Sequence record: ON184125
From: Escherichia phage PC3
Direction: 5' to 3' (one strand)
DNA length: 64,000 bases
The translations under genes were made by a program, and so were the position numbers. Positions 10,484 through 64,000 of the stretch are shown here, in pieces (within the stretch, counting starts at the first letter, position 1; each line of letters starts with the position of its first letter). The notes below the pieces were generated by a model that made no database searches, was not told where the DNA came from, and worked only from the letters and a program-made list of their open reading frames with translations.

Positions 10484-11908
10484 ATGATCCCTATCCTTGA
10501 AATAGTCCACCGACTTCGCGAAACCAAAGGCAGCAATGCGAAGAAAGCTGTGCTGACCGAAGCATTCAAGAACAACCCAGACTTGGCAGACTTCCTGCAA
10601 TATGTCTATGACCCAATGACGTCGTTCTATCGGACTGAGTTGAAGCTCAGCGCGTACCCTCGCATGCTCGTCCGTGAGAAGACTGATGACATCAGCGAAG
10701 TCTATGACGTCCTCGACCAGATGGCACAGCGCCTTGTCGGTGGCCAAAAGGCTGATGCCCTGTTGGCCTCTGTCGCCCTGAAGATGGATCCCCAATACCA
10801 CGAACTCATTCAGATGATCCTAGACCGTGATATCAAGGCGGGTATCGCAGAGAAGGGCATCAACGCTGCATTCAACGCCGCCGGAGGCACTGGACGCCTG
10901 ATCAACATTCTTCCGTATCATCGTTATGACAACATGACGATTGACCTGCTGAAGAAGATGGACTTCAAGCGCGGCGTCTACAGCCAGCTGAAGTCAGACG
11001 GTATGTTCGCCAACATCATATGTCGGTACAATAAAGAGCCTGAGATTCGCTCTCGCTCCGGTTCCCTTATCGCAGGTGGTTCGGTTGATAACCTTTCACT
11101 GGTGTTCAAAGACCTGATCTACGATGCGGGGATTGGTGAGAGTGTGTTCCATGGTGAACTTCTCGTTGTTGACCTCAAGTCTAATACCATCCTGCCTCGT
11201 GCTGTCGGTAACGGTAAACTCAACAGCGTGATTCAGACAGGAGAACCCCTAGAAGATCGTTATCGGGTGATCTACCGGGTGTGGGATGTTGTGCCGTATG
11301 AACAATGGTTCAACGCCCAGCGCGTGGATACCCCGTATGAGCGCCGCTTCGATATTATCCAGCAACTGTTTGATGAAGACGACGGTCTGGTTCAGGTTCA
11401 AGAAACCCGCGTTGTTCACTCATTTGCCGAAGCCGTCGACCACTTCAAAGACGCGCTGGCTCGCAAAGAAGAAGGCACGATATGTAAGGCCGCCGACATG
11501 CCTTGGGAAGATGGGACTTCTTCTGAAGGTCTGAAGCTGAAGATGGAGGTTGAGTGTGACCTTGAAATCGTGGGCTTCAACGAGGCCGACAAGAAGGGTA
11601 AACACGCCAAGACTTTTGGCTCACTGATTTGTAAAACTTCCGATGGCTTGCTTGTTGTTGGTGTATCAGGGATCTCAGATGAGCTGAGACGCCATATGTG
11701 GGAGAACCAGGGCGACTACATTGGCAAGATCGCCGCAGTGCTCTCCAATGGCGTACAGGATAAGACAGATGATGCGATGAAGTCTTTGTTCCTACCTCGC
11801 CTTGTAGAAGTCCGCATTGACAAGAAAGTGGCCAACACACTGGATGAAGTCTATGCGATACAGAAAGCGTACATTGAAAACATCGCATTCCTGTTGGAGT
11901 CTGCATAA
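10484..11908 (+). CDS. ATP-dependent DNA ligase
   Basis: N-terminus resembles T4 DNA ligase; adenylation motif around LKSDGMF (KxDG). Confidence 0.88.
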   Translation: MIPILEIVHRLRETKGSNAKKAVLTEAFKNNPDLADFLQYVYDPMTSFYRTELKLSAYPRMLVREKTDDISEVYDVLDQMAQRLVGGQKADALLASVALKMDPQYHELIQMILDRDIKAGIAEKGINAAFNAAGGTGRLINILPYHRYDNMTIDLLKKMDFKRGVYSQLKSDGMFANIICRYNKEPEIRSRSGSLIAGGSVDNLSLVFKDLIYDAGIGESVFHGELLVVDLKSNTILPRAVGNGKLNSVIQTGEPLEDRYRVIYRVWDVVPYEQWFNAQRVDTPYERRFDIIQQLFDEDDGLVQVQETRVVHSFAEAVDHFKDALARKEEGTICKAADMPWEDGTSSEGLKLKMEVECDLEIVGFNEADKKGKHAKTFGSLICKTSDGLLVVGVSGISDELRRHMWENQGDYIGKIAAVLSNGVQDKTDDAMKSLFLPRLVEVRIDKKVANTLDEVYAIQKAYIENIAFLLESA

Positions 11909-12123
11909 TGAAAGTGTATTTGCTGCAGTATCATGATGGGTGTGACGGTCTACAGGTTCAATCCGTGTCCGGGACGCCAGAGGACGCCCAAAACTCCTTT
12001 CTTGAGAAAGCAGAGGCCTGGGGATTTACCCCAAAAGTGGCGACCCAGCATTTCAGTATTGAGATCTGGGACACAGAGACGGGTTGTTATGTTGATGACC
12101 TGAAAATCGAACTGAAGGGGTGA
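11908..12123 (+). CDS. hypothetical protein
   Basis: 71-aa ORF, start coupled to ligase stop. Confidence 0.4.
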   Translation: MKVYLLQYHDGCDGLQVQSVSGTPEDAQNSFLEKAEAWGFTPKVATQHFSIEIWDTETGCYVDDLKIELKG

Positions 12124-12127
12124 TCTG

Positions 12128-12385
12128 ATGGACGAGCTATTCGCATTGGTGATTGCATTAACGTTCTTACTGTCCTTGATTATCAGCTCGCTTGTGTTGT
12201 TGCTGGTGTGGATAGCTATTCCCGAGATCAATAACCACAAGGCGCTCGTTGTCGTGATTATCCTAGGTCTGAGTGCTTCCCTTACTCTTCACTATTCCAA
12301 ACAGGAGTATAATCCTAACAAATATTACAAGACATTAGCGGACAAGTATCATGAGTTTAAGAATGAAAGAACTTCCGGTAAATGA
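12128..12385 (+). CDS. small membrane protein (2 predicted TM helices)
   Basis: Hydrophobic stretches LVIALTFLLSLIISSLVLLLVWIAI and LVVVIILGLSASL. Confidence 0.4.
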   Translation: MDELFALVIALTFLLSLIISSLVLLLVWIAIPEINNHKALVVVIILGLSASLTLHYSKQEYNPNKYYKTLADKYHEFKNERTSGK

Positions 12386-12602
12386 CAAGAAGTACATGTA
12401 CAAGGTTCTGCTGAGCCTCGGGGTGTCACAATCTGGGCTGGCTCGTTTATTGGATTGTTCTAATGTTGTGAACTACTGGGCGAAGGGTTATCGTGTTGTC
12501 CCCCGCTCCTTCCGTCGCTTCATCCTGGTGTTACAGTTCATCAAGAAGAAAGGGCTGATGGAAGAGTTATTGCAATTTATTAAAGAAGAGGAACGCAAAT
12601 GA
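12351..12602 (+). CDS. HTH (XRE-like) DNA-binding protein
   Basis: LGVSQSGLARLLDCSNVVNYWAKG resembles a Cro/C1-type helix-turn-helix. Confidence 0.4.
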   Translation: MSLRMKELPVNDKKYMYKVLLSLGVSQSGLARLLDCSNVVNYWAKGYRVVPRSFRRFILVLQFIKKKGLMEELLQFIKEEERK

Positions 12603-13294
12603 ACTATACCCGAGCGTTGGTTTCTATCCTTGAAAGGTCTTATTCTCGCAATCTGATTGGGTATTCAGAAAGACACCATAAAGAACCCAGGAGCTTGGGA
12701 GGGACTGATACTGCGGAGAATATTGCTGTTCTAACTGCTCGGGAACATTTCATAGTTCACAAACTTTTGGCCAAGATATTCAGTATGTCTCCTGCATACG
12801 TGAAAATCTTTTCTTTGATGAGAAATATATCAAAATCACAAACTTCACGCCAATACGAAGAGTTCGCTCTCAGAAAATGGGAAAGGGTGAAGACAGCTAA
12901 CAGCACTCCAGAGTTTAAACAAAAATGCAGTGAAAGATTCAAGGGGGTGGCGTTATCCCGTGAACACAGATCGAAAATTTCCGATTCGCTGATGGGCAGA
13001 CCCAAATCAGATTCACAACGTTCCAAATTAAAACAAATCCATTCAAAGCCTTGGGAAAGTCCAAATGCGACACATACCCGCAAATATTGGGCTTTGGCAG
13101 GAATATTCTATGATTGGTGGGTAGCCGATGGTGCCAGGTTAGGCATATGTCGAAATGTAACGATGGTCAAGGAATTGGGGGTGGATCGCGCCGAAATGAC
13201 CGCCAAAAGTTGCATACAAAGATTTCAAAAAGGATGGGTGCCGTACAATGATGAGAATTGGGTTAAGTTTTTCGAGGAAATGAAAAATGCGTGA
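12599..13294 (+). CDS. HNH homing endonuclease
   Basis: HHKEPRSLGGTDTAENIAVLTAREHFIVH HNH motif; C-terminal FQKGWVPYND module shared with the two other endonuclease ORFs. Confidence 0.8.
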   Translation: MNYTRALVSILERSYSRNLIGYSERHHKEPRSLGGTDTAENIAVLTAREHFIVHKLLAKIFSMSPAYVKIFSLMRNISKSQTSRQYEEFALRKWERVKTANSTPEFKQKCSERFKGVALSREHRSKISDSLMGRPKSDSQRSKLKQIHSKPWESPNATHTRKYWALAGIFYDWWVADGARLGICRNVTMVKELGVDRAEMTAKSCIQRFQKGWVPYNDENWVKFFEEMKNA

Positions 13295-13952
13295 GTATAC
13301 CGATTGGGAAAAAATGCAGTTCGAGCGGGCGTTCAACGTTTACTGTGTCTTCATGGCGATCAAGCTGCACTTCACCACTAAGGACTTCGATTACAGCTTG
13401 TATGGACCGATGAATTACAAGTTCGAGACGTTCTTGGCGAAGGAGGCTGTGTGCAAACAGTTTGCTCGCCTTGCCCGTCGGTTCGAGTCATCACAGGGTG
13501 AAGTGGTAGAGAACTACATCATCGCCAACTTCATCAAATCACCCAAGACCTGGGTGACGACATTGCTTACACGCCAGGCTCAGGCCAATTATGATGAATA
13601 CCGTAAGCTGTACGAGAACTTCACATATAACTTCCTTGAGGAGTTCGAGCGGGAGATGATCCCTGCCATAAGGGAGCGCAACTGCACCTTCATTGAGTAC
13701 ATCAAGGGGACGGGTACAGGTCATCCACCGTTGCTGACAGACATCATCATCAAGAAGTTCCCGATTTGGTTCCTTGTCGGTCTGAACAAGATCGTTGGTT
13801 TCATTCATCTATACGATACGATTCTGCGTGATGACATCTACTGGAACTCAGAGGCGTTCTTGCTCAGGAAGACGAATGCTGTGGTTCCGGATGAGGATAC
13901 CACATATTCAAAACAGAGACTCCGTGAGCTAATACAAGCCCACGGAATCTGA
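13287..13952 (+). CDS. hypothetical protein
   Basis: 221-aa ORF. Confidence 0.5.
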   Translation: MREYTDWEKMQFERAFNVYCVFMAIKLHFTTKDFDYSLYGPMNYKFETFLAKEAVCKQFARLARRFESSQGEVVENYIIANFIKSPKTWVTTLLTRQAQANYDEYRKLYENFTYNFLEEFEREMIPAIRERNCTFIEYIKGTGTGHPPLLTDIIIKKFPIWFLVGLNKIVGFIHLYDTILRDDIYWNSEAFLLRKTNAVVPDEDTTYSKQRLRELIQAHGI

Positions 13953-15899
13953 TTACCATTCCCACAGGATGCGGGAATTATCTGTTTTGTTCTCAGGCTC
14001 AAGATATGAGCTGTTGAAGTTATTGGTCGTGTTGATCCTCTTAGAAGCATCCACATTCTGCTGTACTGGCATCACGACGCTGGCCGGAGGCGGTGAATAG
14101 CCGCCTTGTACTTGCTCAATATTAGACAGCGCCCTCCCTTGTGATGGCATGGCCCCGCCCAGAGTACCACCCCCGATAGAACCATACGCAGCTTTCAGCT
14201 GAGAGGTGCGGTCATTAGTCATATTCTTGTAATCTGAAGACGCACCAGAAGGTATTGGAGTCAGCGTTTGTGGATCGATGTTCGGTTGTGCTGGCGTCTG
14301 TGGCTGCTGGGTCTCTGTCACATCAGGAGACGGATTCTCATCAGTGTCAATCAGCATAGACTGGCGAGCCTCATCCATCTTCTGCTTCGCAGCCTGTCCA
14401 CCCAGAGCGTCAGGGATGATGCTGACGAACTTGTCAACGATATCGAACATCGCATTGGTGATTGTGTTCAGCATGTTGAAGAAAGGTTTCTTCACATTTT
14501 CGGCAAATCCCTTCTTGATTTCGTCAATAACCTTGTTGGCCACACCCATGCCCTCGTCGATCACACTACTGATACCCCCTGTGATCCAGTCTACCAGCTT
14601 CATCAACTCGGACTGTAGGTTGTCTGCTAACTTGCCAGGGATATCCGTAAGAGACGTGTCTCTCCCGATCCCTGCAAACAAGTCGTTGCTAATCCAGTCG
14701 ATAATACCATTCAGCCAACGAGCGGGAGCCTCAGTGATCATGAGGGTGTATTTGCGCAGGGTTTCACCCGCCTCGGTATCAAAGCCAAAGATCTTGGACA
14801 CCCAGTCAAATAGATCACCAAATCCACCAACCAGTTCTGATATCCCCGCCCGTACTCGGTCAACTATCGTGACAGCACCTTTACCCAGGATCTCCTTCGC
14901 ATCAATGAAGCCTTTACCGAAGTCCCAGATCATAGACAGGAGAGCCAGTGGGCCGACTTTCAGGAACTTGAACACCTTCCCAAATGGGCCCAGAAGTTTG
15001 GTGATACCTTCTCCCAGCTTGGAGAACATGCCGAGGAAAGTCCCGACAACACCACCGATGATCTTGAACGGCTTGAGCAAGAAGCCCTTCAGTGCATTCA
15101 GGCCAAGCATGGCCGCCACCGCCGCCCCGATACCGGAGGAATCGTCTTTCTGGTCATCGTCTTTGGGTATAACAGAACCCGCCTGAGGATGACCACCCGT
15201 TTCTTTGTCGGTTTCCCCACGGCGCATCTCGTCCTTCTCACGCCACTTCTGGTCTTCATCAAAGATGCGTGTCAACACTCCAACGATATGACCGCCCGTG
15301 CGCCCAATCTTGTTTTCAATGCTATACAAGCGAGTAAGGGTGTCATCGGAGTTCTTTTTCAGTTCAGCAACATCGTCACGAACCTCGATCATCACTCCGT
15401 CGATCATGTTCAAGAATGATCCCACGCGGACCAGAGACACACTCTGCTCGTCCATGCGCTTGAGGGTGTCATCATTGGCAGACTTCAGCTGGTCTGAGAT
15501 CAGGTTAAGATACTCCAGGGACGTGTCATCTGTTGGCATGCGGGTGATCTCACCGAGGCGGTCAATCTTGCCTGCGATATTCTCCAGTTCCCGATTGCCT
15601 TCGTTACCCACATCGACAGTATCCTTCATCCATACGCTGAAGTCGCGGGTGAAGATCGGAGACATGCGAGCGAATCCCATGACGATCTCATTGACTGTCG
15701 GGATACGGATTTCAAATGGCTTGGACTCGGCCTTGGTGCCCTGTTTAGTGGCAGATTCCAGCTTGGCCAGATTCTTGTTCATCCGGTCAAGCTGTCTGTT
15801 GGTTTCATTCTGAGCGCGGAGTTGTTTGCGCTGCATCATCTCCGCCTTGATCTTGTCTAGAACTTTGACAACATCATTGTTCGTTGCTTCCTGTGCCAT
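13953..15899 (-). CDS. virion structural protein, tape-measure/hub-like (coiled-coil N-terminus, Gly-rich hydrophobic core)
   Basis: 648 aa; N-terminal heptad-like region; GIGAAVAAMLGLNALKGFLLKPFKIIGGVVGTFLGMF segment typical of tape-measure or baseplate-hub proteins. Confidence 0.5.
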   Translation of the reverse strand: MAQEATNNDVVKVLDKIKAEMMQRKQLRAQNETNRQLDRMNKNLAKLESATKQGTKAESKPFEIRIPTVNEIVMGFARMSPIFTRDFSVWMKDTVDVGNEGNRELENIAGKIDRLGEITRMPTDDTSLEYLNLISDQLKSANDDTLKRMDEQSVSLVRVGSFLNMIDGVMIEVRDDVAELKKNSDDTLTRLYSIENKIGRTGGHIVGVLTRIFDEDQKWREKDEMRRGETDKETGGHPQAGSVIPKDDDQKDDSSGIGAAVAAMLGLNALKGFLLKPFKIIGGVVGTFLGMFSKLGEGITKLLGPFGKVFKFLKVGPLALLSMIWDFGKGFIDAKEILGKGAVTIVDRVRAGISELVGGFGDLFDWVSKIFGFDTEAGETLRKYTLMITEAPARWLNGIIDWISNDLFAGIGRDTSLTDIPGKLADNLQSELMKLVDWITGGISSVIDEGMGVANKVIDEIKKGFAENVKKPFFNMLNTITNAMFDIVDKFVSIIPDALGGQAAKQKMDEARQSMLIDTDENPSPDVTETQQPQTPAQPNIDPQTLTPIPSGASSDYKNMTNDRTSQLKAAYGSIGGGTLGGAMPSQGRALSNIEQVQGGYSPPPASVVMPVQQNVDASKRINTTNNFNSSYLEPENKTDNSRILWEW

Positions 15900-52992: not shown

Positions 52993-53451
52993 TTATTCTT
53001 CCCAGAAGTCGTCATCGTCACCGACGGCGGCCAGTTCCGTGTCCAGGTCTTCATCACTGAATGGTGGCAGCACGCCATTCTGGATCAGATAATCCATCTC
53101 ATCGTCTTCCAGCTGCAGGTCAGTGGCAATATACAGCGCTCCACTGCCCTCTTCGTCCGTCTCGATGCTATACGAAGTGTATGGCACCCCATTCACCGTG
53201 ATGATGATAGACGTTGGATCCTCGGGATCTACGTGAGCCTCGAACGGTACGCCGTCAATCGGTGCATCTTCCAGGAAGGTGGCAAGGGCTACGGCGGCGC
53301 GGACAACATCAGTGCCTTCAACGCCTGCATAGATCTCTTCCGCGCCCGTCTCTTCACGATCAAACAGCTCAATCGTGATACCGTCTTGAACACCAGTCCA
53401 TACAGGGATGTCATTGGTGTATTCTGATTCAAACAATTTGGAGGTTGGCAT
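52993..53451 (-). CDS. hypothetical acidic protein
   Basis: 152-aa ORF with strongly acidic C-terminus. Confidence 0.45.
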   Translation of the reverse strand: MPTSKLFESEYTNDIPVWTGVQDGITIELFDREETGAEEIYAGVEGTDVVRAAVALATFLEDAPIDGVPFEAHVDPEDPTSIIITVNGVPYTSYSIETDEEGSGALYIATDLQLEDDEMDYLIQNGVLPPFSDEDLDTELAAVGDDDDFWEE

Positions 53452-53595
53452 GTTGGGTTCCTCAGTGGGTTAGCCATATGGGGTATTTAGGCTTCCCGCT
53501 TGGCGAGGCCTGGTTTGTACAGGACGCCTCTCGGAAATATTGGAGGAAGGTTTTCATAGATACCCCACACGGATTGTATGGGGTATTCAGGAGGG

Positions 53596-55636: not shown

Positions 55637-55954
55637 CTTTGTATCATTGAACAAACTATGATAAAGGAGGACATGCTTGGGCCGATAAGAAGATAATAAG
55701 ACAGGGATAAAAAGAAAGCCGGATAGGATATCCGGCTATACCACATCGATGGGATGGGTTGAAAGACTACACGCTTGCACTGGTACTACCCTATGGGAGA
55801 GCGCGTCAGGAGTCGAACCTGAAGTCGTCGACGTAGAGAAAGCTATTTGCATTTCACTATCCTCGCCTCGATTTTCTTAACTTCCTAAACACCCCGATTA
55901 CGAGAGAGTCGACATGCACATCTTCTAACTCTTCAGGAAGTCACGCCCGTAATT

Positions 55955-56043
55955 TGGCGGAAGGTGAAGGATTCGAACCTTCGGGGGCTAAAAGCCCCAC
56001 TCGATTAGCAGTCGAGTCCCTTAAACCTCTCGGGCAACCTTCC
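55955..56043 (-). tRNA. tRNA-Ser (anticodon GCU), type II with long variable arm, CCA encoded
   Basis: Manually folded cloverleaf: acceptor GGAAGGT/ACCTTCC, anticodon stem CTCGA/TCGAG with loop CTGCTAA, variable-arm stem GGGC/GCCC, T-arm GAAGG-TTCGAAT-CCTTC. Confidence 0.8.
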
Positions 56044-56296: not shown

Positions 56297-56373
56297 TGGT
56301 GATCCTGATTGGGTTTGAACCAATGACCAATGAATTATGAGTTCACTGCTCTAACCGACTGAGCTACAGGACC
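56297..56373 (-). tRNA. tRNA with CAU anticodon (Met or lysidine-modified Ile), CCA encoded
   Basis: Acceptor GGTCCTG/CAGGATC (one G-U), D-arm GCTC-AGTCGGTTA-GAGC, anticodon loop CTCATAA, T-arm ATTGG-TTCAAAC-CCAAT. Confidence 0.75.
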
Positions 56374-58599: not shown

Positions 58600-59169
58600 T
58601 TATTTTAACACTTCTAACTTCACAATACGACGCAGAAGGTAAACATATTCGCCAGCAGCTTCATGCGTCATATAATGGGTAGAAGGTGTGGAATGAGTGT
58701 TCTGGGTTTCTTTTAATCCAACGCGTTCAGCCCAACCATTAATAGAGTTCCCATAGAAACCGATAATCGCGCCAAAATAAATGCGCCCGCTTTCTGGCTC
58801 TAAAACGTAGTTGACAGTGAAGCAAATGTCAGAACGAATAGACTCCAGTTTCATACCAACACGACCTTCAGAGAATTCGTTACGAACATATAAATGACGG
58901 AAGCGATCGCGCCGTGCTTGTGATGATTCTTCCAATTCTTGTCGAAGTGAAGAAGTTATGTCAATATTAAATGAAAATGTTGGATTTCGTAAATCAGAAC
59001 GGGCCAACTCTAACGCAGATTCAATAACGCGACGGAAATTGATACTTTTACCTGTCAGGCGTTTCACTTCATCGGTGATTGTTTCAAAAGGGATTTTCGT
59101 GGCGCGTTCCCCTTCGTATTTTGCTAACAAAGGAACAATGTGTTTCATGATTGCTGTGTTAATGTGCAT
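58600..59169 (-). CDS. hypothetical protein
   Basis: 189-aa ORF. Confidence 0.5.
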   Translation of the reverse strand: MHINTAIMKHIVPLLAKYEGERATKIPFETITDEVKRLTGKSINFRRVIESALELARSDLRNPTFSFNIDITSSLRQELEESSQARRDRFRHLYVRNEFSEGRVGMKLESIRSDICFTVNYVLEPESGRIYFGAIIGFYGNSINGWAERVGLKETQNTHSTPSTHYMTHEAAGEYVYLLRRIVKLEVLK

Positions 59170-59534
59170 TCCGGAGCCTCACTGGATTGATTAAATGTCT
59201 CCGTTATTATATTGGGAGTATGTTTATTGAATATAAACACAGGAATGACCAATAAAATAATGACAGTGATTATTAATAGGTAAAAACTACTTTTCTATAA
59301 CATCAAGAAACTGTATCCTAACGCAGTGCCCTTCGAGTTGTGAGTGTTAACGAACAACGAGAAGCAGCCTCCATGGCTGTGGAATGGTGCTGCCCGCACA
59401 GGGCGGTGTTACGAGCGAGGGCGTCAGCCCCCTCGCGAGTTATATTCGAATAAATTAAACGCGCGCGAGCGTTTTGATTCCCGTTGGCTAAATATCTTCA
59501 ACACCATATTCAAACTCAGGTGATGGAGATTATC

Positions 59535-61313
59535 ATGGCCACGCAAACAGTCCCTTCACTCGATGTCAGGGCTTTCGAGTATCTTATCAAGAAGCGCATG
59601 AAAGCTGATCCAACTTTCAAGGATTATGACTTTGAAGGTTCTGGTCTCAGTGCAATCGTGCGTATCTTGGCCTCGGATGCCAACTCTATCGGGTTCATGC
59701 AGAACATGCTGAATGGCGAAAGCCATCTTCACTCTGCTCAACAGCGTTCTAATGTCGGTCTGGCGGCGGGGTTCTTGTCTTACACCCCTCACAACTACCA
59801 GGCAGCGTTCCTGTACGCAAACGTCACAGTCACTCCATATGACGCCAGCACGGCTCCAGACACGATTGTAATGGATCGCCGCGCGATGTTCATTGGGGTG
59901 AAAGATGGCAAATCCTATAACTTCACGGTTGACCAACCTGTGAGCGCCTCTCTTGTAGACGGCTCTTACAAGTTCGAGAACATCAAACTCATACAGGGTA
60001 ACTGGCTGTACAAGTCCTATGATGTGGAAGGCAGCGCGATCTCTACCTATGTGATCCCATCTTCTTCCGTGGACATCGACCATATGGTGGTGCAGGTGCA
60101 GGAATCTGAGACATCTGACGTGCGGTCTACCTTCTCACGATATGTCAGCCCGTTCGATTTGAGCCAGTATGCGCAACTCTACTTCGTTGAGCTGGGGTTG
60201 GACGGGTTGTACACGTTCGAATTCGGTGATGGGTATATCTGTAAGCGAGTAGAAGACGGGAACGTCGTGTACCTCCAGTATCTGGAGACAGCTGGTGCAG
60301 ACGGCAATGACATCACTGCCTTGTCCTCCGCGTCTTCCATCGGGGGATTCAACCTTGTAGATGTTGAGCTGGTGTCAGAACGTTCTTCTGGTGGTAAGGA
60401 CCCAGAGAGCATTGAGGACATCAAGCGCCTTGCTCCGCTGGCTTATCAGGCTGAGGGTGCGGCGGTGGCCGAAGTCGATTATGCTGTGTTGACCGAGCGT
60501 CTGTTCTCCAACGTCTCCCGCGCCAAAGCATATGGCGGCGACACGCTCTCTCCGCCCGACTCCGGATACGTTTACATTGCTGTGATACCTTCTGTTGGTG
60601 AGGCGCTCTCGGACGCTGAGAAGGCAGATATCGTGGCGACGTTAGACAAGTACAATGTGGGCACGATCACACCCAAGATTGTCGACGCTGAACTGACTTA
60701 TGTTGATGTCACCACCCGCGTGTTCTGGGATCCGACTTCCACGTCCTATACCGAAGAGCAGTTGAAGACAGTCGTGAAGAACGGTGTTGTCAACTGGGGC
60801 TTGGGGAACCTAGAAGGATTCGACGAACTGTTCGATAAAGAGCAGTTACAGTCGGCCATCACCGACATGGACAGATCGATAGTGTCAAACATCACTTCTG
60901 TGAAGTACAAGCGCCATTTCAAGCCAGACTATGGGGTACTGGACAGCTTCACGTTCGATTATGGGCGCTCGATTGCGTCTGGTTCTGTGCGTATCAGTGG
61001 GTTTAAGCCGCTTCCGGCCGAGGTCGACTTCACTTACTACATGCGCGACGTCAGTGGTGTCCTGAATATGTACAAGGTGAGTACAACAGACACGACCAAG
61101 GAATATCTGGTACAAGCTGTTGGAACAGTTGATTATATGACTGGCGTTGTTGAACTCCAGCGTATCATAGTATCCAACTACAACACTGAGGGTATGACAA
61201 TAATTGTGTCTCCAGACGGTCTTGACCAGAACATTCAGGCCACACAGAATCAGGTGCTCCGCATCGGTGCTGTAACTGTGGAGCCGGAGGTGCGTTATGT
61301 CCAAAGATCTTAA
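59535..61313 (+). CDS. baseplate wedge protein (gp6 / baseplate J-like candidate)
   Basis: 592 aa from ATG 59535 with GGAG RBS; size and position before tail-fibre genes fit a myovirus baseplate wedge subunit; family call by context. Confidence 0.45.
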   Translation: MATQTVPSLDVRAFEYLIKKRMKADPTFKDYDFEGSGLSAIVRILASDANSIGFMQNMLNGESHLHSAQQRSNVGLAAGFLSYTPHNYQAAFLYANVTVTPYDASTAPDTIVMDRRAMFIGVKDGKSYNFTVDQPVSASLVDGSYKFENIKLIQGNWLYKSYDVEGSAISTYVIPSSSVDIDHMVVQVQESETSDVRSTFSRYVSPFDLSQYAQLYFVELGLDGLYTFEFGDGYICKRVEDGNVVYLQYLETAGADGNDITALSSASSIGGFNLVDVELVSERSSGGKDPESIEDIKRLAPLAYQAEGAAVAEVDYAVLTERLFSNVSRAKAYGGDTLSPPDSGYVYIAVIPSVGEALSDAEKADIVATLDKYNVGTITPKIVDAELTYVDVTTRVFWDPTSTSYTEEQLKTVVKNGVVNWGLGNLEGFDELFDKEQLQSAITDMDRSIVSNITSVKYKRHFKPDYGVLDSFTFDYGRSIASGSVRISGFKPLPAEVDFTYYMRDVSGVLNMYKVSTTDTTKEYLVQAVGTVDYMTGVVELQRIIVSNYNTEGMTIIVSPDGLDQNIQATQNQVLRIGAVTVEPEVRYVQRS

Positions 61314-62151
61314 TAACGGACACAATGGGGTGAAATATGAAACCCCATTGTTTTACCAGAATGAATTCCCAGTATTCATCGAGTTTATGGATACGTTCTT
61401 CAACTGGTTGTATCGCCAGCAGGGATTCACCGAAGAGGAGATCTTGGCGTATCTGGCAGACACTGGTGGTTGGGTGAACCCAAATACGGATCAGTCTCCT
61501 ATTGAGCAGTTGATTGACATCAAGAAGCGCAAGACGCCAGGTACTGAGGCCAAAGACTTCTTGGAAGACAAGTTCCTGAAGCGCACGTTTGAGAACATGA
61601 TGGCGCTAGATTTCGAAGATTTGCTGGACGTGGACGGTCGGCTATTAATCTCAATGGAAGACAAGAACGAACGCATCGACGATTGGTATGCTGATTTTGG
61701 ATTCCAGAGAACGGTTGATAAGTCCTTCCTGGAGTTCGGGAAGTTTGTGCCAGTTGGTTCGGACAGTTTAGTGACTTCAGACGGAGACACACTCTCTGTA
61801 TATGTCGAGGGAACTGAACGCCGGACACTGGACCATGTACGCTGGTTGAAGTTGCTTAAACACATTTATCGCATTCGCGGGACGAAGAAAGCGATTGAAT
61901 TGTTCTTCTGGATTTACTTTGGTTGCCCAGTGAGTGTGTATTATCCCAAGGAAGCAATTGGTGGCCTAGATGACAACTTTGAATGTGACGGCGCGACAGG
62001 AATGCGTGACGATTACTACTATGATGAATTCACGTATGTGATAAGAGTTCCTGGCAACGTATCTGATTTTGAAGGTGTGTTTGATCGCGTCTTCCGTCAG
62101 CATTTCCATCCTGCTGGGTTTACTGTATTCCTAGAAAGTTCAAGGAGTTAA
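61297..62151 (+). CDS. baseplate/tail-associated protein (hypothetical)
   Basis: 284-aa ORF overlapping the upstream gene end within a structural operon. Confidence 0.45.
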   Translation: MSKDLNNGHNGVKYETPLFYQNEFPVFIEFMDTFFNWLYRQQGFTEEEILAYLADTGGWVNPNTDQSPIEQLIDIKKRKTPGTEAKDFLEDKFLKRTFENMMALDFEDLLDVDGRLLISMEDKNERIDDWYADFGFQRTVDKSFLEFGKFVPVGSDSLVTSDGDTLSVYVEGTERRTLDHVRWLKLLKHIYRIRGTKKAIELFFWIYFGCPVSVYYPKEAIGGLDDNFECDGATGMRDDYYYDEFTYVIRVPGNVSDFEGVFDRVFRQHFHPAGFTVFLESSRS

Positions 62152-62153
62152 AA

Positions 62154-63344
62154 ATGGCCGATTTTCTGAGTCGATACACAGGTCAGCAGATTGATGCAAT
62201 CCTTTCTTCTGTTGACGATAAGATAAGCAAGACTGATGTTATCAACGATTTCGCTGTTGATGATCCGTTGTTCCCTCCTTCGGCTCATTTGACATACGAG
62301 CTGAAGCGTTCTGTGGATAATATCTACGACACACTGGAAAACAAAGTGATCCGTACCGACGGTGGTGAACAAACGATCAACGGGAACAAGACTTTTGCTG
62401 CGTTGTTGACCGCCAACGGCGGCCTGACTGTTCCGGCTGGAAAGAAACTGTCTATCATGGATGAACCTATGGTAGCGACAGATGGTGTTAACCTGAGCAT
62501 GTTGAGAAAGCATGGTGTCAGTGAAGACACTACCCCACCTGGTTCTGGTTTGGCTGGGGAGTTGTTGGCATCCGGATATTACAAATTCAATTTGGATTTC
62601 ACCAGATTGTCTGCGTATACCGGATCAACGATGCCGACTTCAATTCCAGTACAAACAGATTCTGGAGCGCGTTATTGGACAATGACTGCATTTTTTGATG
62701 CGTTGTTTGCAGATAACCGATTTAATGGATATGTGACAACGACAGCGTATGACGCAGATATGCTGAGTCTAGAGTCCCAGATTAATAACATCAACACGTC
62801 GTTGAACGGGAAAGTCAACACATCGACTTACAACACGAAGATGGCGTCGTTGGATTTGAGCATCTCCAATATCAATACGTCTCTGGGTAATAAAGTCGAG
62901 GTCAGCACGTACAACACGAAGATGGCATCTCTGGATAACAGCATCAGTTCTCTTTCCAGTGATAAAGTTAATGTATCAACGTATAATGCCAAGATGACCT
63001 CTGTCGACAATAGTTTAGGGAACGCCGTTTATCGTACCAAAACGAATTTGTCTTCTTACACGGTTTCGGCTTCTGGGACGACGGCTCTTCCAGATTTTGA
63101 TTTGGTGAACCTTTGTCAAATACTGGTGACCGCGCAATGGGGAACAGGTAACGTTGTTGATACATATCGAGTAACCATAACTCGCGACGGAACGATCAAA
63201 TCGGAGTTGTTAGTTCAGAAGTCCACTTCTGGTACAGTGACGTTCACAGGGGCTGTGGTGGGTGGTAAATTGAGAATTTCCGTTGTTAATGCGAATACGA
63301 CGACTGCGTGCTCCGTTGACTACAATCTAGTCGCTTCTTTCTAA
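62154..63344 (+). CDS. tail fibre protein with internal tandem repeats
   Basis: N-terminal YTGQQIDAIL typical of tail-fibre N-termini; three ~28-aa repeats INTSLNGKV..STYNTKMASLD. Confidence 0.55.
   Translation: MADFLSRYTGQQIDAILSSVDDKISKTDVINDFAVDDPLFPPSAHLTYELKRSVDNIYDTLENKVIRTDGGEQTINGNKTFAALLTANGGLTVPAGKKLSIMDEPMVATDGVNLSMLRKHGVSEDTTPPGSGLAGELLASGYYKFNLDFTRLSAYTGSTMPTSIPVQTDSGARYWTMTAFFDALFADNRFNGYVTTTAYDADMLSLESQINNINTSLNGKVNTSTYNTKMASLDLSISNINTSLGNKVEVSTYNTKMASLDNSISSLSSDKVNVSTYNAKMTSVDNSLGNAVYRTKTNLSSYTVSASGTTALPDFDLVNLCQILVTAQWGTGNVVDTYRVTITRDGTIKSELLVQKSTSGTVTFTGAVVGGKLRISVVNANTTTACSVDYNLVASF
62781..63010 (+). repeat. ~84-bp imperfect tandem repeats (about 3 copies) inside the tail-fibre gene
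   Basis: Near-identical DNA blocks ...ATCAA(C/T)ACGTC...ACAACACGAAGATGGC(G/A)TC...TGGAT at 62787 and 62871, with a third degenerate copy. Confidence 0.6.
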
Positions 63345-63396
63345 AGTGAAAACTAAATACCCCTAGATGAAACGAACACATTTAGGGGTATTTGAA

Positions 63397-64000
63397 ATGG
63401 CTAATAAACCAACACAGCCTGTTTTCCCTCTCGGTCTGGTGGCTGAAGAGCAGTCTACTTTGGCTGGTGTCGTCAACACGGGTACGATTGAGCATGGACC
63501 AGATGCTGTCCTGACTTTACCCGAGGGTAATGCCAGCGCAGGACTCCCGTCTTCCGTTCGCTACAATGCCGACTCCGACGAATTTGAGGGCTTCTATGAA
63601 AATGGTGGATGGTTGCCGCTGGGTGGCGGTGGTATCCGCTGGGAAGTCCTTCCGCATGCCTCTACGGTAACGCTCACTGAAGGGCGAGGCTATCTCATTA
63701 ATAATACCACAGGGGCATCTACAGTGGTTCTCCCTTCCCCTACGCGTATTGGGGATTCCGTTACTATTTGTGATGCTTATGGGAAATTTGCCACTTACCC
63801 ATTGACTGTGTCTCCTTCTGGAAATAATTTGTATGGCTCCACTGAAGACATGGCTATAACAACTGATAACGTATCAGCAACGTTCACTTGGTCTGGACCT
63901 GAACAAGGTTGGATTATTACATCCGGCGTCGGTCTTGGCCAAGGTCGCGTCTACAGTCGTGAAATCTTTACAAAAATTTTGGCGTCTGAAACAAGTTCTG
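63397..64000 (+). CDS. tailspike/tail-fibre protein, N-terminal anchor domain (partial, runs off window end)
   Basis: Open frame from ATG 63397 to the window end; SSVRYNADSDEFEGFYENGGWLPLGGGGIRWE resembles the conserved N-terminal domain of tailspikes in ViI-like phages, from memory. Confidence 0.6.
   Translation, partial: MANKPTQPVFPLGLVAEEQSTLAGVVNTGTIEHGPDAVLTLPEGNASAGLPSSVRYNADSDEFEGFYENGGWLPLGGGGIRWEVLPHASTVTLTEGRGYLINNTTGASTVVLPSPTRIGDSVTICDAYGKFATYPLTVSPSGNNLYGSTEDMAITTDNVSATFTWSGPEQGWIITSGVGLGQGRVYSREIFTKILASETSS

Follow-up and report, generated by a model that had tools for sequence, protein, structure and literature searches.

The window, by which we mean the whole 64,000-nt stretch of DNA analysed here, ends in the host-recognition locus of a published E. 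coli phage, PH4, an ordinary locus that is already in the databases. It lies where the late baseplate operon of this Agtrevirus phage meets the tailspike cluster. One gene at the junction encodes a 396-aa protein with four tandem repeat units, five in a sibling isolate; the next encodes the tailspike TSP4; and the two genes together form a mosaic of domains related to two different genera. We consider it probable that, as a whole, the locus is explained by a baseplate-anchored fibre encoded next to TSP4, the putative anchor of a tailspike complex.

Results

The window ends at the junction of baseplate and tailspike genes

The window matches Escherichia phage PH4 (ON184126.1) at 100% identity and corresponds to the last 64 kb of that record, whose lineage is Ackermannviridae; Aglimvirinae. 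PH4 is given the genus Agtrevirus in PMC10791037. Given this identity, the ViI-like (Ackermannviridae) placement guessed in a preliminary description of the window proves right, and both genes described there lie where it put them: the plus-strand ORF of 396 aa at 62154-63344, and an ATG at 63397 that opens an ORF leaving the window. In the circular record, which continues past the end of the window, the genes are a gp6-like gene, a wedge gene, the fibre gene, TSP4, TSP3, TSP2, TSP1, and then the gene for a 1612-aa DUF4815 protein. This order agrees with the layout in PMC11721090, where the tsp cluster sits between baseplate wedge genes and the gene in the vriC position, and TSP4 heads the cluster. 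The gene order of the locus recurs in 179 records, each covering at least 80% of the query. The wedge gene has a 17-nt overlap with the gp6-like gene and ends with a stop codon 2 nt ahead of the fibre ATG; a PHROG-based annotation names it 'head closure Hc2'.

Table 1 Features at the end of the window, with positions in the window, strand, and basis for the assignment.
Feature	Position	Strand	Basis
Baseplate wedge subunit gene, 284 aa	61297-62151	+	Pfam PF23786 Baseplate_wedge, E 8e-146; ORF table
Fibre gene PH4_000191, 396 aa, conserved in Ackermannviridae	62154-63344	+	ORF table
N-terminal module, aa 1-115: helices and helix-neck motif (aa 64-96, KVIRTDGGEQTINGNKTF...)	62154-62498	+	Family alignment
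Variable beta domain, aa 126-196	62529-62741	+	Beta strands in both AlphaFold models; lowest column conservation
Repeat region, four units of 81/81/72/72 nt (27/27/24/24 aa), predicted segmented coiled-coil shaft	62742-63047	+	Self-comparison
Repeat unit 1, aa 197-223, degenerate	62742-62822	+	
Repeat unit 2, aa 224-250	62823-62903	+	
Repeat unit 3, aa 251-274	62904-62975	+	
Repeat unit 4, aa 275-298, degenerate	62976-63047	+	
C-terminal beta-sandwich domain, aa 299-396, conserved	63048-63341	+	pLDDT 82-91 over residues 301-390
CTAAATACCCC, regulatory motif described for Ackermannviridae genomes	63353-63363	+	Motif scan
Stem-loop, 16-bp stem, 9-nt loop	63354-63394	+	-21 kcal/mol, z -6.3
TSP4 anchor domain (AD), aa 1-75	63397-63621	+	7REJ match; limits from PMC8825819
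GGGG linker, aa 76-79	63622-63633	+	Translation
TSP4 XD1, aa 80-178, T4 gp9/gp10-like beta sandwich	63634-63930	+	7REJ match; PMC8825819
XD1-XD2 linker, aa 179-188, GLGQGRVYSR, and first XD2 residues	63931-64000	+	7REJ match; PMC8825819

Parts of the fibre protein

The fibre gene is annotated 'hypothetical protein' in the PH4 record; its product falls in phrog_3838 (E 1e-211), whose function is listed as unknown in PHROGs. Scans of the protein gave 0 matches in NCBIfam and sub-threshold matches only in Pfam, and searches of the PDB returned nothing meaningful by sequence and only matches of E 0.1 or worse by profile. Reviews count the gene among three 'baseplate proteins' without giving it a fibre role, and one database record annotates the product as 'baseplate wedge tail fiber protein connector'. 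Gp135 of Sajous1, a 396-aa homologue, yielded 74 spectra in CsCl-purified virions; by analogy with such published homologues, the PH4 protein would be located in the virion as well. Antisense or overlapping ORFs of 40-121 aa also occur within the fibre gene, which is itself conserved in the plus frame.

An AlphaFold model of the full-length monomer has moderate confidence only (mean pLDDT 67.5, pTM 0.30). A second run, which was limited to residues 1-200 and included remote homologues, reached a mean pLDDT of 70.5, and Foldseek found no PDB match for it at E < 1. The N-terminal module, which we propose to be the baseplate-proximal end, is conserved across the family and is reused on proteins of 316-673 aa that carry other distal parts; together with the repeat motif it also occurs in long fibre-like proteins of up to ~2500 aa. 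The variable beta domain is the most divergent part of the protein (93-94% identical to Kuttervirus, 34-45% to other Agtrevirus). The C-terminal knob, by contrast, is highly conserved across genera; one would not usually expect this of a receptor binder that confers host specificity, and a contact with another protein would account for it as well.

The repeats vary in number by whole units

The preliminary description had counted about three imperfect 84-bp (28-aa) repeats in this gene. The repeats exist, but both their period and their number were given wrongly: there are four units, of 81/81/72/72 bp. In a protein self-comparison with a 54-aa window, an offset of 27 aa gives 31 identities and an offset of 24 aa gives 17; an offset of 28 aa gives 7, within the background of 6-10. 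Likewise, the DNA offset scan gives 87/160 matches at 81 and 75/160 at 72, and the 53/160 at 84 are background. A repeat search found a start-to-start spacing of 81. Pairwise DNA identity of the units is 48-63%, and Tandem Repeats Finder (TRF), run on 60000-64000 with a minimum score of 30, returned 0 rows. Helices predicted in the AlphaFold monomer at residues 196-220, 223-247, 250-267, and 274-288 coincide with the repeat units.

The repeats had also been flagged as a likely hot-spot for length variation, and this idea is borne out. The fibre of Escherichia phage A221 (ON862890.1) has 423 aa, is 93% identical overall to that of PH4, and carries one surplus 81-bp (27-aa) unit, a perfect copy of unit 2 (TRF period 81, 2.2 copies, 100% matches); the DNA flanking the repeats is identical at 360/361 positions. 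Indeed, every indel in the family alignment lies inside the repeat region. By our reading of the A221 alignment, an identical 17-nt stretch, TACAACACGAAGATGGC, stands at every unit start. Members of the family have 1-6 units of 20, 24, 27, 31, or 34 aa in proteins of 335-440 aa, and the 396-aa layout of 27/27/24 is common to 62/120 cluster representatives from two subfamilies.

A fold match to T4 gp9

In a Foldseek search with the fibre model, the top PDB match is T4 gp9 (1QEX; E 9e-6, probability 1.00, rmsd 3.8, 107 columns). This match most likely arises through the C-terminal domain. The knob fold is also found at the C-termini of many unrelated phage fibres; the fibre model does show an eight-stranded beta-sandwich, but this is non-specific because the fold is common to so many fibre tips. 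The Pfam gp9 families PF07880 and PF23618 have no match in the fibre at E up to 0.1, and a model search with the middle domain (taken from the N-terminal model, mean pLDDT 70.5) found no match to gp9 or XD1. In hhalign comparisons, the fibre family scored a probability of 0.7% against T4 gp9 and 0.8% against a 29-member gp9 alignment. Given that these comparisons and the one with T4 gp12 gave no signal, we rejected gp9 as a name for the fibre.

TSP4 and the element upstream of it

TSP4 is the product of the ORF that begins at 63397. Of this protein the window encodes residues 1-201 (AD, XD1, and the start of XD2); the gene resumes at position 1 of the circular record and encodes 1053 aa in total. 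As had been claimed, it opens with a tailspike N-terminal anchor: residues 1-338 match CBA120 TSP4-N (7REJ/7RFO/7RFV; phmmer E 1.6e-194), for which the crystal structure of the anchor/assembly module provides the domain limits (Chao et al, 2022; PMC8825819), and the linkers GGGG (76-79) and GLGQGRVYSR (179-188) are conserved in PH4. Residues 344-499, taken from the public record past the end of the window, match 5W6H/4OJ5, with Pfam Tail_spike_N at 417-482. The 566 aa at the distal end share 98.8% identity with a tail protein of nithesis, a 72.6-kb phage that is unrelated, and are weakly BNR/sialidase-like (BNR_2 at 27.1 bits, below the cut-off; sialidase PDB matches at E 2e-4 to 8e-3). Extension past 64000 and homology searches, the checks suggested in the preliminary description, thus find a distal receptor-binding module and place the N-terminal domain in the expected family. 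They also bring out the several interchangeable spikes anticipated past the window: TSP4 is followed by TSP3, TSP2, and TSP1, whose N-termini match their CBA120 counterparts and whose distal modules differ. The CBA120 TSP4 trimer binds the baseplate, TSP1, and TSP2, as ultracentrifugation has revealed for CBA120 only; by analogy, TSP4-N of PH4 would serve as an anchor and hub.

Upstream of TSP4 lies the motif CTAAATACCCC, reported in PMC7283392; allowing at most one mismatch, it has 4 sites in the window compared to 0.52 expected. The intergenic stem-loop, which is unique in the window, includes in its 3' arm the AGGGG Shine-Dalgarno-like sequence of TSP4. Its stem core is the same in Kuttervirus Mansal and Agtrevirus MK-13, and its loop varies. 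Both the family motif CTAAATAcCcc and the TSP4 ribosome-binding site would lie in this conserved stem-loop. A promoter and terminator scan gave counts close to the shuffled expectation; the hairpin, which has a 9-nt loop and no T-run, was not called a terminator.

The locus is a mosaic of Agtrevirus and Kuttervirus domains

Judged by percent identity, PH4 is a chimera. The middle-to-C-terminal part of the fibre and XD1-XD3 of TSP4 are of Kuttervirus type, and the AD that lies between them is of Agtrevirus type, as are the baseplate genes. Identity to Agtrevirus loci is 97-99% for the gp6-like protein, the wedge protein, and the AD, and identity to Kuttervirus loci is mostly 87-97% for the middle and C-terminal domains of the fibre and for XD1-XD3. 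The AD (aa 1-75) shares 97% of its residues with Agtrevirus MK-13 and 68-70% with Kuttervirus, XD1 is 87-92% identical to most Kuttervirus loci vs 70-75% to other Agtrevirus, and XD1-XD3 are 87-95% identical to most of the Kuttervirus loci sampled. Fibre aa 1-115 are not clearly of Agtrevirus type (83-86% vs 77-79%), so their co-inheritance with the baseplate is weak. The domain-wise chimerism fits an AD that needs to match its own baseplate. Given that the exchange breakpoints lie roughly at domain boundaries and that the AD agrees in type with the baseplate genes, it lends independent comparative support to the proposed anchor role.

We also tested co-variation, using distance matrices for nine protein segments from 22 loci in partial Mantel tests. 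The fibre middle domain and XD1-3 show a partial r of ~0.8; with PH4 removed and near-identical genomes collapsed, however, the values are 0.33 and 0.10. This loss points to one or two exchange events rather than general co-evolution of these parts, which we rejected. Distances of the AD and the fibre C-terminus, controlling for the wedge protein, correlate with a partial r of 0.61 without PH4, a value that is inseparable from physical linkage because the two segments are only 52 nt apart.

Discussion

The product of gene 62154-63344 is most likely a homotrimeric fibre whose N-terminus is fixed to the baseplate; we infer its trimeric state, its orientation, and its receptor-side role. From the baseplate outwards, such a fibre would begin with a helix, then a helix-neck motif like those in TP901-1 BppL and T4 gp12, followed by the variable beta domain. 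The shaft would consist of four units of 27/27/24/24 residues, in which short coiled-coil helices are separated by a KV(D/N/E)xSTYNxK element, and the tip would be the conserved C-terminal beta-sandwich knob. Shaft length would be set by the number of units and changed through unequal recombination between them, as may have happened in A221. By homology with CBA120, the AD trimer would plug a four-tailspike complex into the baseplate; XD2 would bind TSP2, XD3 would bind TSP1, and TSP2 would carry TSP3, leaving the distal tailspike modules to bind and cut surface polysaccharide. More tentatively, the protein of 396 aa might serve Ackermannviridae as their projecting 'prong' or secondary-contact fibre, with the shaft as a ruler in which gain or loss of 20-27-residue units tunes the reach of the knob relative to the tailspike layer, and with a distal half swapped between subfamilies together with XD1-XD3 while the AD is kept matched to the resident baseplate.

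It is rather unlikely that the 396-aa protein is instead the counterpart of T4 gp9, an adaptor at the baseplate periphery that offers a C-terminal socket to the TSP4 AD trimer and is not a receptor-binding fibre. Such an adaptor would account for gp9 being the best PDB fold match, for a gene immediately 5' of the gp10-like TSP4, as T4 gene 9 is to gene 10, and for the connector annotation in one record; knob conservation across genera is what one expects of a protein-protein interface, and the AD and fibre C-terminus distances correlate. That correlation is predicted by physical adjacency (52 nt) too, however, and many unrelated phage fibres have the knob fold at their tips. Neither Pfam nor the profile-profile comparison (<1% probability) links the protein to gp9; in PH4 the knob is of Kuttervirus type and the AD of Agtrevirus type, so they were not co-inherited; and TSP4 has a gp9-like XD1 of its own.

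Two further readings concern the repeats. If they formed a DNA tandem array prone to slippage, as a VNTR-like contingency locus whose length changes at high frequency within a phage population, then a sibling isolate such as A221 might well differ by exactly one perfect 81-bp unit, and the 17-nt identical stretch that links units 2 and 3 would fit as well. We nevertheless think this very unlikely: TRF found no array among the divergent units of PH4, and a layout common to 62/120 representatives, combined with low unit identity, suggests that change is occasional and on an evolutionary scale rather than rapid. The repeats might also be a spacer inside the baseplate, in a protein that is an internal wedge component with nothing projecting. 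This is highly improbable, even though the gp6-like, wedge, and fibre genes sit close together in a single operon and the literature labels the three as 'baseplate proteins', because ~100 residues of predicted serial helices in 1-6 units are hard to fit into a wedge of fixed geometry, because the N-terminal module and repeat motif recur in much longer fibre-like proteins, and because the knob fold is typical of fibre tips. A fibre anchored to the baseplate is the reading that we prefer.

The locus decides which O-antigens are open to attack and so matters for phage typing, therapy, and tailspike engineering. For this family the role of tailspikes and O-antigens is well understood, and this exact sequence is publicly available. 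We did not find in the papers that we consulted the repeat anatomy of the fibre, the natural +1-unit allele of A221, the finding that the fibre model has its best PDB fold match in T4 gp9, or the PH4 exchange breakpoints, roughly at domain boundaries, with an AD that agrees in type with the baseplate genes.

Several parts of the locus resemble known systems. The core of the PH4 repeat unit, KVEVSTYNTKMASLD, parallels KADKETVYTKAESKQE in residues 69-99 of HylP1 (2C3F), a tail-fibre hyaluronidase of a Streptococcus prophage, where this segment forms two beta-layers in hexad spacing and then a helix (alpha/beta coiled coils; Hartmann et al, 2016; PMC4786415). Units of 27 (21+6) and 20 (14+6) residues equal a heptad multiple plus 6, the insertion that yields beta-layers; units of 24, 31, and 34 would need hendecads. 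The likeness is one of motif, by eye, and of periodicity only, and the AlphaFold model of the PH4 monomer has plain helices with short breaks. Similarly, residues 18-65 of TP901-1 BppL align with the PH4 motif NKVIRTDGGEQTINGNKTF...NGGLTVP, and residues 284-298 of T4 gp12, 'DVIHQRGGQTING', resemble the PH4 neck motif; both segments are beta-layer or neck elements of trimeric fibres. All PH4 matches to BppL and gp12 are sub-threshold (E 0.02-1.9), including the PDB profile match to BppL (E 0.11) and PF18338 (BppL_N; 14.9 bits, gathering cut-off 25.8), and the remainder of the fibre protein is unrelated; the remote homologue P0134, at 31.4 bits, exceeds the Pfam cut-off for PF18338.

T4 has the gene order 7-8-9-10 and PH4 has wedge, fibre, and then TSP4 with its gp10-like XD1-3, so that T4 gp9 and the PH4 fibre share a position directly 5' of a gp10-like gene. 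Reviews state that Ackermannviridae are without gp9-11, and gp9 as the best fold match sits awkwardly with that; the PH4 fibre is 108 aa longer than gp9, which lacks its neck motif and its helical shaft of four units. A further comparison is with CBA120. The distal module of PH4 TSP4 is unrelated to that of CBA120 TSP4, but the two proteins are collinear over residues 1-338, with the same linkers and the same D1/D2 head domains next, and both head a TSP4-TSP3-TSP2-TSP1 cluster.

The locus and its tailspike in PH4

A megablast search with 61200-64000 returned Escherichia phage PH4 (ON184126.1), which is 100% identical along the full length of the query, and the match ends exactly at the final base of PH4's 155,895-bp circular record. 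Adding 91,895 converts a window coordinate into a PH4 record coordinate, placing the fibre gene (62154-63344) at 154049-155239 and the next start codon, 63397, at 155292. The taxonomy of the PH4 record is Ackermannviridae; Aglimvirinae, bearing out the ViI-like placement ventured in a preliminary description; a comparative study handles PH4 as an Agtrevirus and reports tsp clusters common to PH4, PC3, and RPN242 (PMC10791037). A further 220 phage records matched, mostly Kuttervirus at ~83% identity, and their genes run in the same order. Some records bear unexpected host names (OR844942.1 and others): those called Enterococcus phage Efm 3-10 (111 kb), one Pseudomonas-named record, and one Yersinia-named record carry a Kuttervirus-type locus at ~83% identity; wrong host labels or contamination likely lie behind them. 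The locus as a whole is public and well studied.

The ORF that starts at ATG 63397 has 201 codons within the window; joined to PH4 record positions 1-2558, it encodes TSP4, a tailspike of 1053 aa. Over residues 1-338 it matches the crystal structures of CBA120 TSP4-N (E 1.6e-194), confirming the conserved N-terminal anchor that had been proposed for this gene. We took domain limits from PMC8825819; past the window, TSP4 continues through XD2 and XD3 into the D1/D2 head domains. Residues 344-499 match 5W6H and 4OJ5, with Pfam Tail_spike_N at 417-482. The genes 3' of TSP4 encode TSP3, TSP2, and TSP1, whose N-termini match CBA120 TSP3 (5W6F), TSP2 (6W4Q), and TSP1 (4OJ5) and whose distal parts differ from theirs; several spikes in a locus continuing past the window had indeed been predicted. 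After TSP1, in the vriC position, lies a 1612-aa protein (PH4 record 10902-15740) with matches to Pfam DUF4815 (E 5e-61) and, weakly, Phage_spike_2; in reviews, the protein in this position is speculated to make up the prong-like projections.

The preliminary description had proposed looking beyond 64000 for a distal spike module. Such a module is present (about 550 residues). It differs from that of CBA120 TSP4 and looks weakly BNR/sialidase-like, not beta-helical: BNR_2 scores 27.1 bits, below cut-off, and GH33 structures match at E 2e-4 to 8e-3. The distal 566 aa (PH4 record 858-2555) share 98.8% identity with a tail protein from phage nithesis (72.6 kb); the module is 83% identical to a Sashavirus BDX09P1 record and ~30% identical to Kuttervirus 'exo-alpha-sialidase' spikes. 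These matches suggest that this receptor-binding module may have been exchanged between phage families, as is usual for such modules.

Coordinates of features (window positions; closest relative from sliding DNA identity)
Feature	Position	Strand	Details
Repeat unit 1	62742-62822		aa 197-223; 81 nt / 27 aa; TAYDADMLSLESQINNINTSLNGKVNT
Repeat unit 2	62823-62903		aa 224-250; 81 nt / 27 aa; STYNTKMASLDLSISNINTSLGNKVEV
Repeat unit 3	62904-62975		aa 251-274; 72 nt / 24 aa; STYNTKMASLDNSISSLSSDKVNV
Repeat unit 4	62976-63047		aa 275-298; 72 nt / 24 aa; STYNAKMTSVDNSLGNAVYRTKTN
TSP4 anchor domain (AD)	63397-63621		aa 1-75
TSP4 GGGG linker	63622-63633		aa 76-79
TSP4 XD1	63634-63930		aa 80-178
TSP4 GLGQGRVYSR linker	63931-63960		aa 179-188
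TSP4 XD2 start	63961-64000		aa 189 onwards
gp6-like, wedge, fibre N-terminus	59500-62400		Agtrevirus MK-13 closest, mostly 89-100%, down to 85% at 3' end
Fibre middle domain, repeats, knob	62500-63300		Kuttervirus Mansal closest, 88-99%
Fibre end, intergenic, AD	63300-63700		Agtrevirus MK-13 closest, 93-98%
XD1 onwards	63700-64000		Kuttervirus Mansal closest, 93-98%
Motif copy, 0-1 mismatch	53480-53490	-	
Motif copy, 0-1 mismatch	53580-53590	-	
Motif copy, 0-1 mismatch	55885-55895	+	
Motif copy (fourth)	63353		
tRNA-Ser(GCT)	55955-56043	-	
tRNA-Met(CAT)	56297-56373	-	

Anatomy and copy number of the fibre repeats

About three imperfect 84-bp (28-aa) repeats had been described in the 396-aa fibre ORF. 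The repeats exist, but their period and number are different. Scanning the protein by offset gave 31 identities per 54-aa window at 27 aa and 17 at 24 aa; an offset of 28 aa gave 7, at background (6-10). The DNA scan agrees, with 87/160 matches at 81 nt, 75/160 at 72 nt, and only the background level (44-57) at 84 nt (53/160). An independent repeat search found one pair spaced 81 nt. Anchoring the borders on the motif [ST][AT]Y[ND]x[KD]M yielded four units of 81, 81, 72, and 72 nt. Tandem Repeats Finder (TRF) reported no array here even at score 30, because the units share only 48-63% nucleotide identity. The top sigma-70-like promoter match of the region (10/12; 62959-62987, plus strand) lies within unit 3 and is probably due to chance, since the total of such matches is close to the shuffled expectation.

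The suspected hot-spot for length variation is supported by comparison with relatives. Apart from a few truncated entries, 125 database relatives are 335-440 aa long, and aligning 21 of the sequences places all large indels between the conserved N-terminal 200 and C-terminal 100 residues. Relatives carry 1 to 6 units by motif count, spaced 20, 24, 27, 31, or 34 aa and never 28; the 396-aa 27/27/24 layout occurs in 62/120 cluster representatives, across two subfamilies. The closest copy-number case is phage A221 (ON862890.1), with a fibre of 423 aa: its DNA is identical to PH4 at 360/361 positions across the region, apart from one additional 81-bp unit, and TRF detects its repeat (period 81, 2.2 copies, 100% matches). 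As we read the A221/PH4 alignment, units 2 and 3 open with the same 17 nt, TACAACACGAAGATGGC, which suggests that unequal recombination took place there. These data support occasional changes in unit number on an evolutionary scale, not a hypermutable array. The repeat anatomy and the natural +1-unit allele are a small new point.

Chimerism of the PH4 locus

Sliding identity in 100-nt windows against Agtrevirus MK-13 and Kuttervirus Mansal revealed that PH4 switches between two parents along the locus; protein identities were also taken domain by domain.

Protein identity of PH4 domains to Agtrevirus loci (L004/L017/L018) and to most Kuttervirus loci
Domain	Agtrevirus	Kuttervirus
gp6-like and wedge	97-99%	77-83%
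Fibre middle domain	38%	93-94%
Fibre knob	81-85%	96-97%
TSP4 anchor domain	97%	68-70%
TSP4 XD1	72-75%	87-92%
TSP4 XD2-3	52-63%	92-95%

Between its two Kuttervirus-type flanks the AD is Agtrevirus-type and so stays with the resident baseplate, as expected if it has to fit that baseplate. The chimerism lends independent, circumstantial support to the anchoring role that had been proposed on the basis of the CBA120 structure, and this domain-wise pattern, with the AD kept beside its own baseplate, is a second small new point. Further upstream, 59000-59500 is 92-98% identical to Mansal versus 57-83% to MK-13; the divergent gene 58600-59169 has its 5' end in this stretch, which also takes in the intergenic region.

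We also considered whether the fibre middle domain is linked to XD1-3 in general. Partial Mantel tests on a set of 22 loci did not uphold this; the link mostly disappears when PH4 is removed and near-identical genomes are collapsed.

The intergenic stem-loop and neighboring annotation

The 52 nt separating the fibre gene from TSP4 fold into a hairpin (63354-63394; -21 kcal/mol, z -6.3) with 16 bp in the stem and 9 nt in the loop. Mansal and MK-13 have the same stem core but different loops. The hairpin may act as a promoter, a processing or stability element, or a brake on translation. The 3' arm carries AGGGG, the likely ribosome-binding site of TSP4; the Mansal record has an RBS annotated at the equivalent place. 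The 5' arm carries CTAAATACCCC; for the Ackermannviridae phage EspM4VN, this is reported as one of the genome's two 'unique regulatory motifs' (PMC7283392). Allowing one mismatch, the window holds 4 sites versus 0.52 expected. A minus-strand ORF (52993-53451) starts ~30 nt downstream of the copy at 53480; the inverted-repeat partner seen at 63354 is absent at the copies at 53480, 53580, and 55885.

Pfam PF23786, 'Phage baseplate wedge subunit', matches the 284-aa product of 61297-62151 over the full length (E 8e-146). PHROG-based pipelines and several relatives' RefSeq records label it 'head closure Hc2' (phrog_3465), probably a propagated misannotation. Between 55585 and 58599 (~3 kb), the GenBank record has no annotated CDS; besides two tRNA genes, this stretch contains only ORFs of <=72 aa.

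Nature and fold of the fibre protein

The fibre is a virion protein: its Sajous1 homologue, gp135 (1191 nt, same gene position), gave 74 spectra from CsCl-purified virions (PMC10892097). The gene is counted among 'three baseplate proteins' that flank the tsp cluster in a review that gives the make-up of the prong-like baseplate projections as unknown (PMC11721090). In PHROGs it is phrog_3838, function listed as unknown; Pfam yielded sub-threshold matches only, NCBIfam zero matches, and a PDB sequence search no solved structure. An AlphaFold2 monomer model built from the family alignment is moderately confident (mean pLDDT 67.5, pTM 0.30), with one helix for each repeat unit (196-220, 223-247, 250-267, 274-288) followed by a confident beta sandwich, the knob (residues 301-390, pLDDT 82-91).

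Among 1.8 billion representative proteins, the family is small when counted over the full length. Proteins of 316-673 aa whose distal parts are unrelated share the N-terminal 130-180 residues, and the repeat motif is found many times in long fibre-like proteins (KVDQTEYNxKIxxxESxI occurs ~twelve times, counted by eye, in the 1190-aa protein P0129). This reuse supports a three-part build: N-terminal attachment module, shaft, and distal knob.

Three weak signals from residues 50-96 (…NKVIRTDGGEQTINGNKTFAALLTANGGLTVP) point in one direction: Pfam BppL_N (E 0.02), residues 18-65 of TP901-1 BppL in a PDB profile search (E 0.11), and the non-significant top Foldseek match of a second model, of residues 1-200, again toward BppL. 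A remote homologue (P0134) scores above the Pfam cut-off for BppL_N. Fibre residues 50-96 also resemble T4 gp12 284-298, NADVIHQRGGQTING, listed among the beta-layer elements of trimeric fibres (PMC4786415). A parallel to the repeat core, KVEVSTYNTKMASLD, is KADKETVYTKAESKQE in the tail fibre HylP1, a segment that forms two beta-layers in hexad spacing and then a helix; unit lengths of 27 and 20 are heptad multiples + 6. [quoted passage not shown] We assign it to the C-terminal domain because this is the model's sole confident beta domain, and an hhalign fragment (fibre 302-328, gp9 179-207) indicates the same place. Among predicted viral structures, many fibres of cyanophages and uncultured phages give the same ~100-column match at their C-termini, and so do gp9 and gp9+10 proteins from Aeromonas phage; the fold is therefore typical of fibre tips, not specific to gp9. 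Membership in the gp9 family was rejected at the sequence level: Pfam PF07880 and PF23618 do not match the fibre, and hhalign gives a probability <1% against both T4 gp9 and a 29-member gp9 alignment. As a small new point, gp9 is the best PDB match of the predicted fold. The fibre gene also lies directly 5' of the gp10-like TSP4, as T4 gene 9 precedes gene 10, and we regard gp9 as an analogue of the fibre in structure and position, without assigning the fibre to its family.
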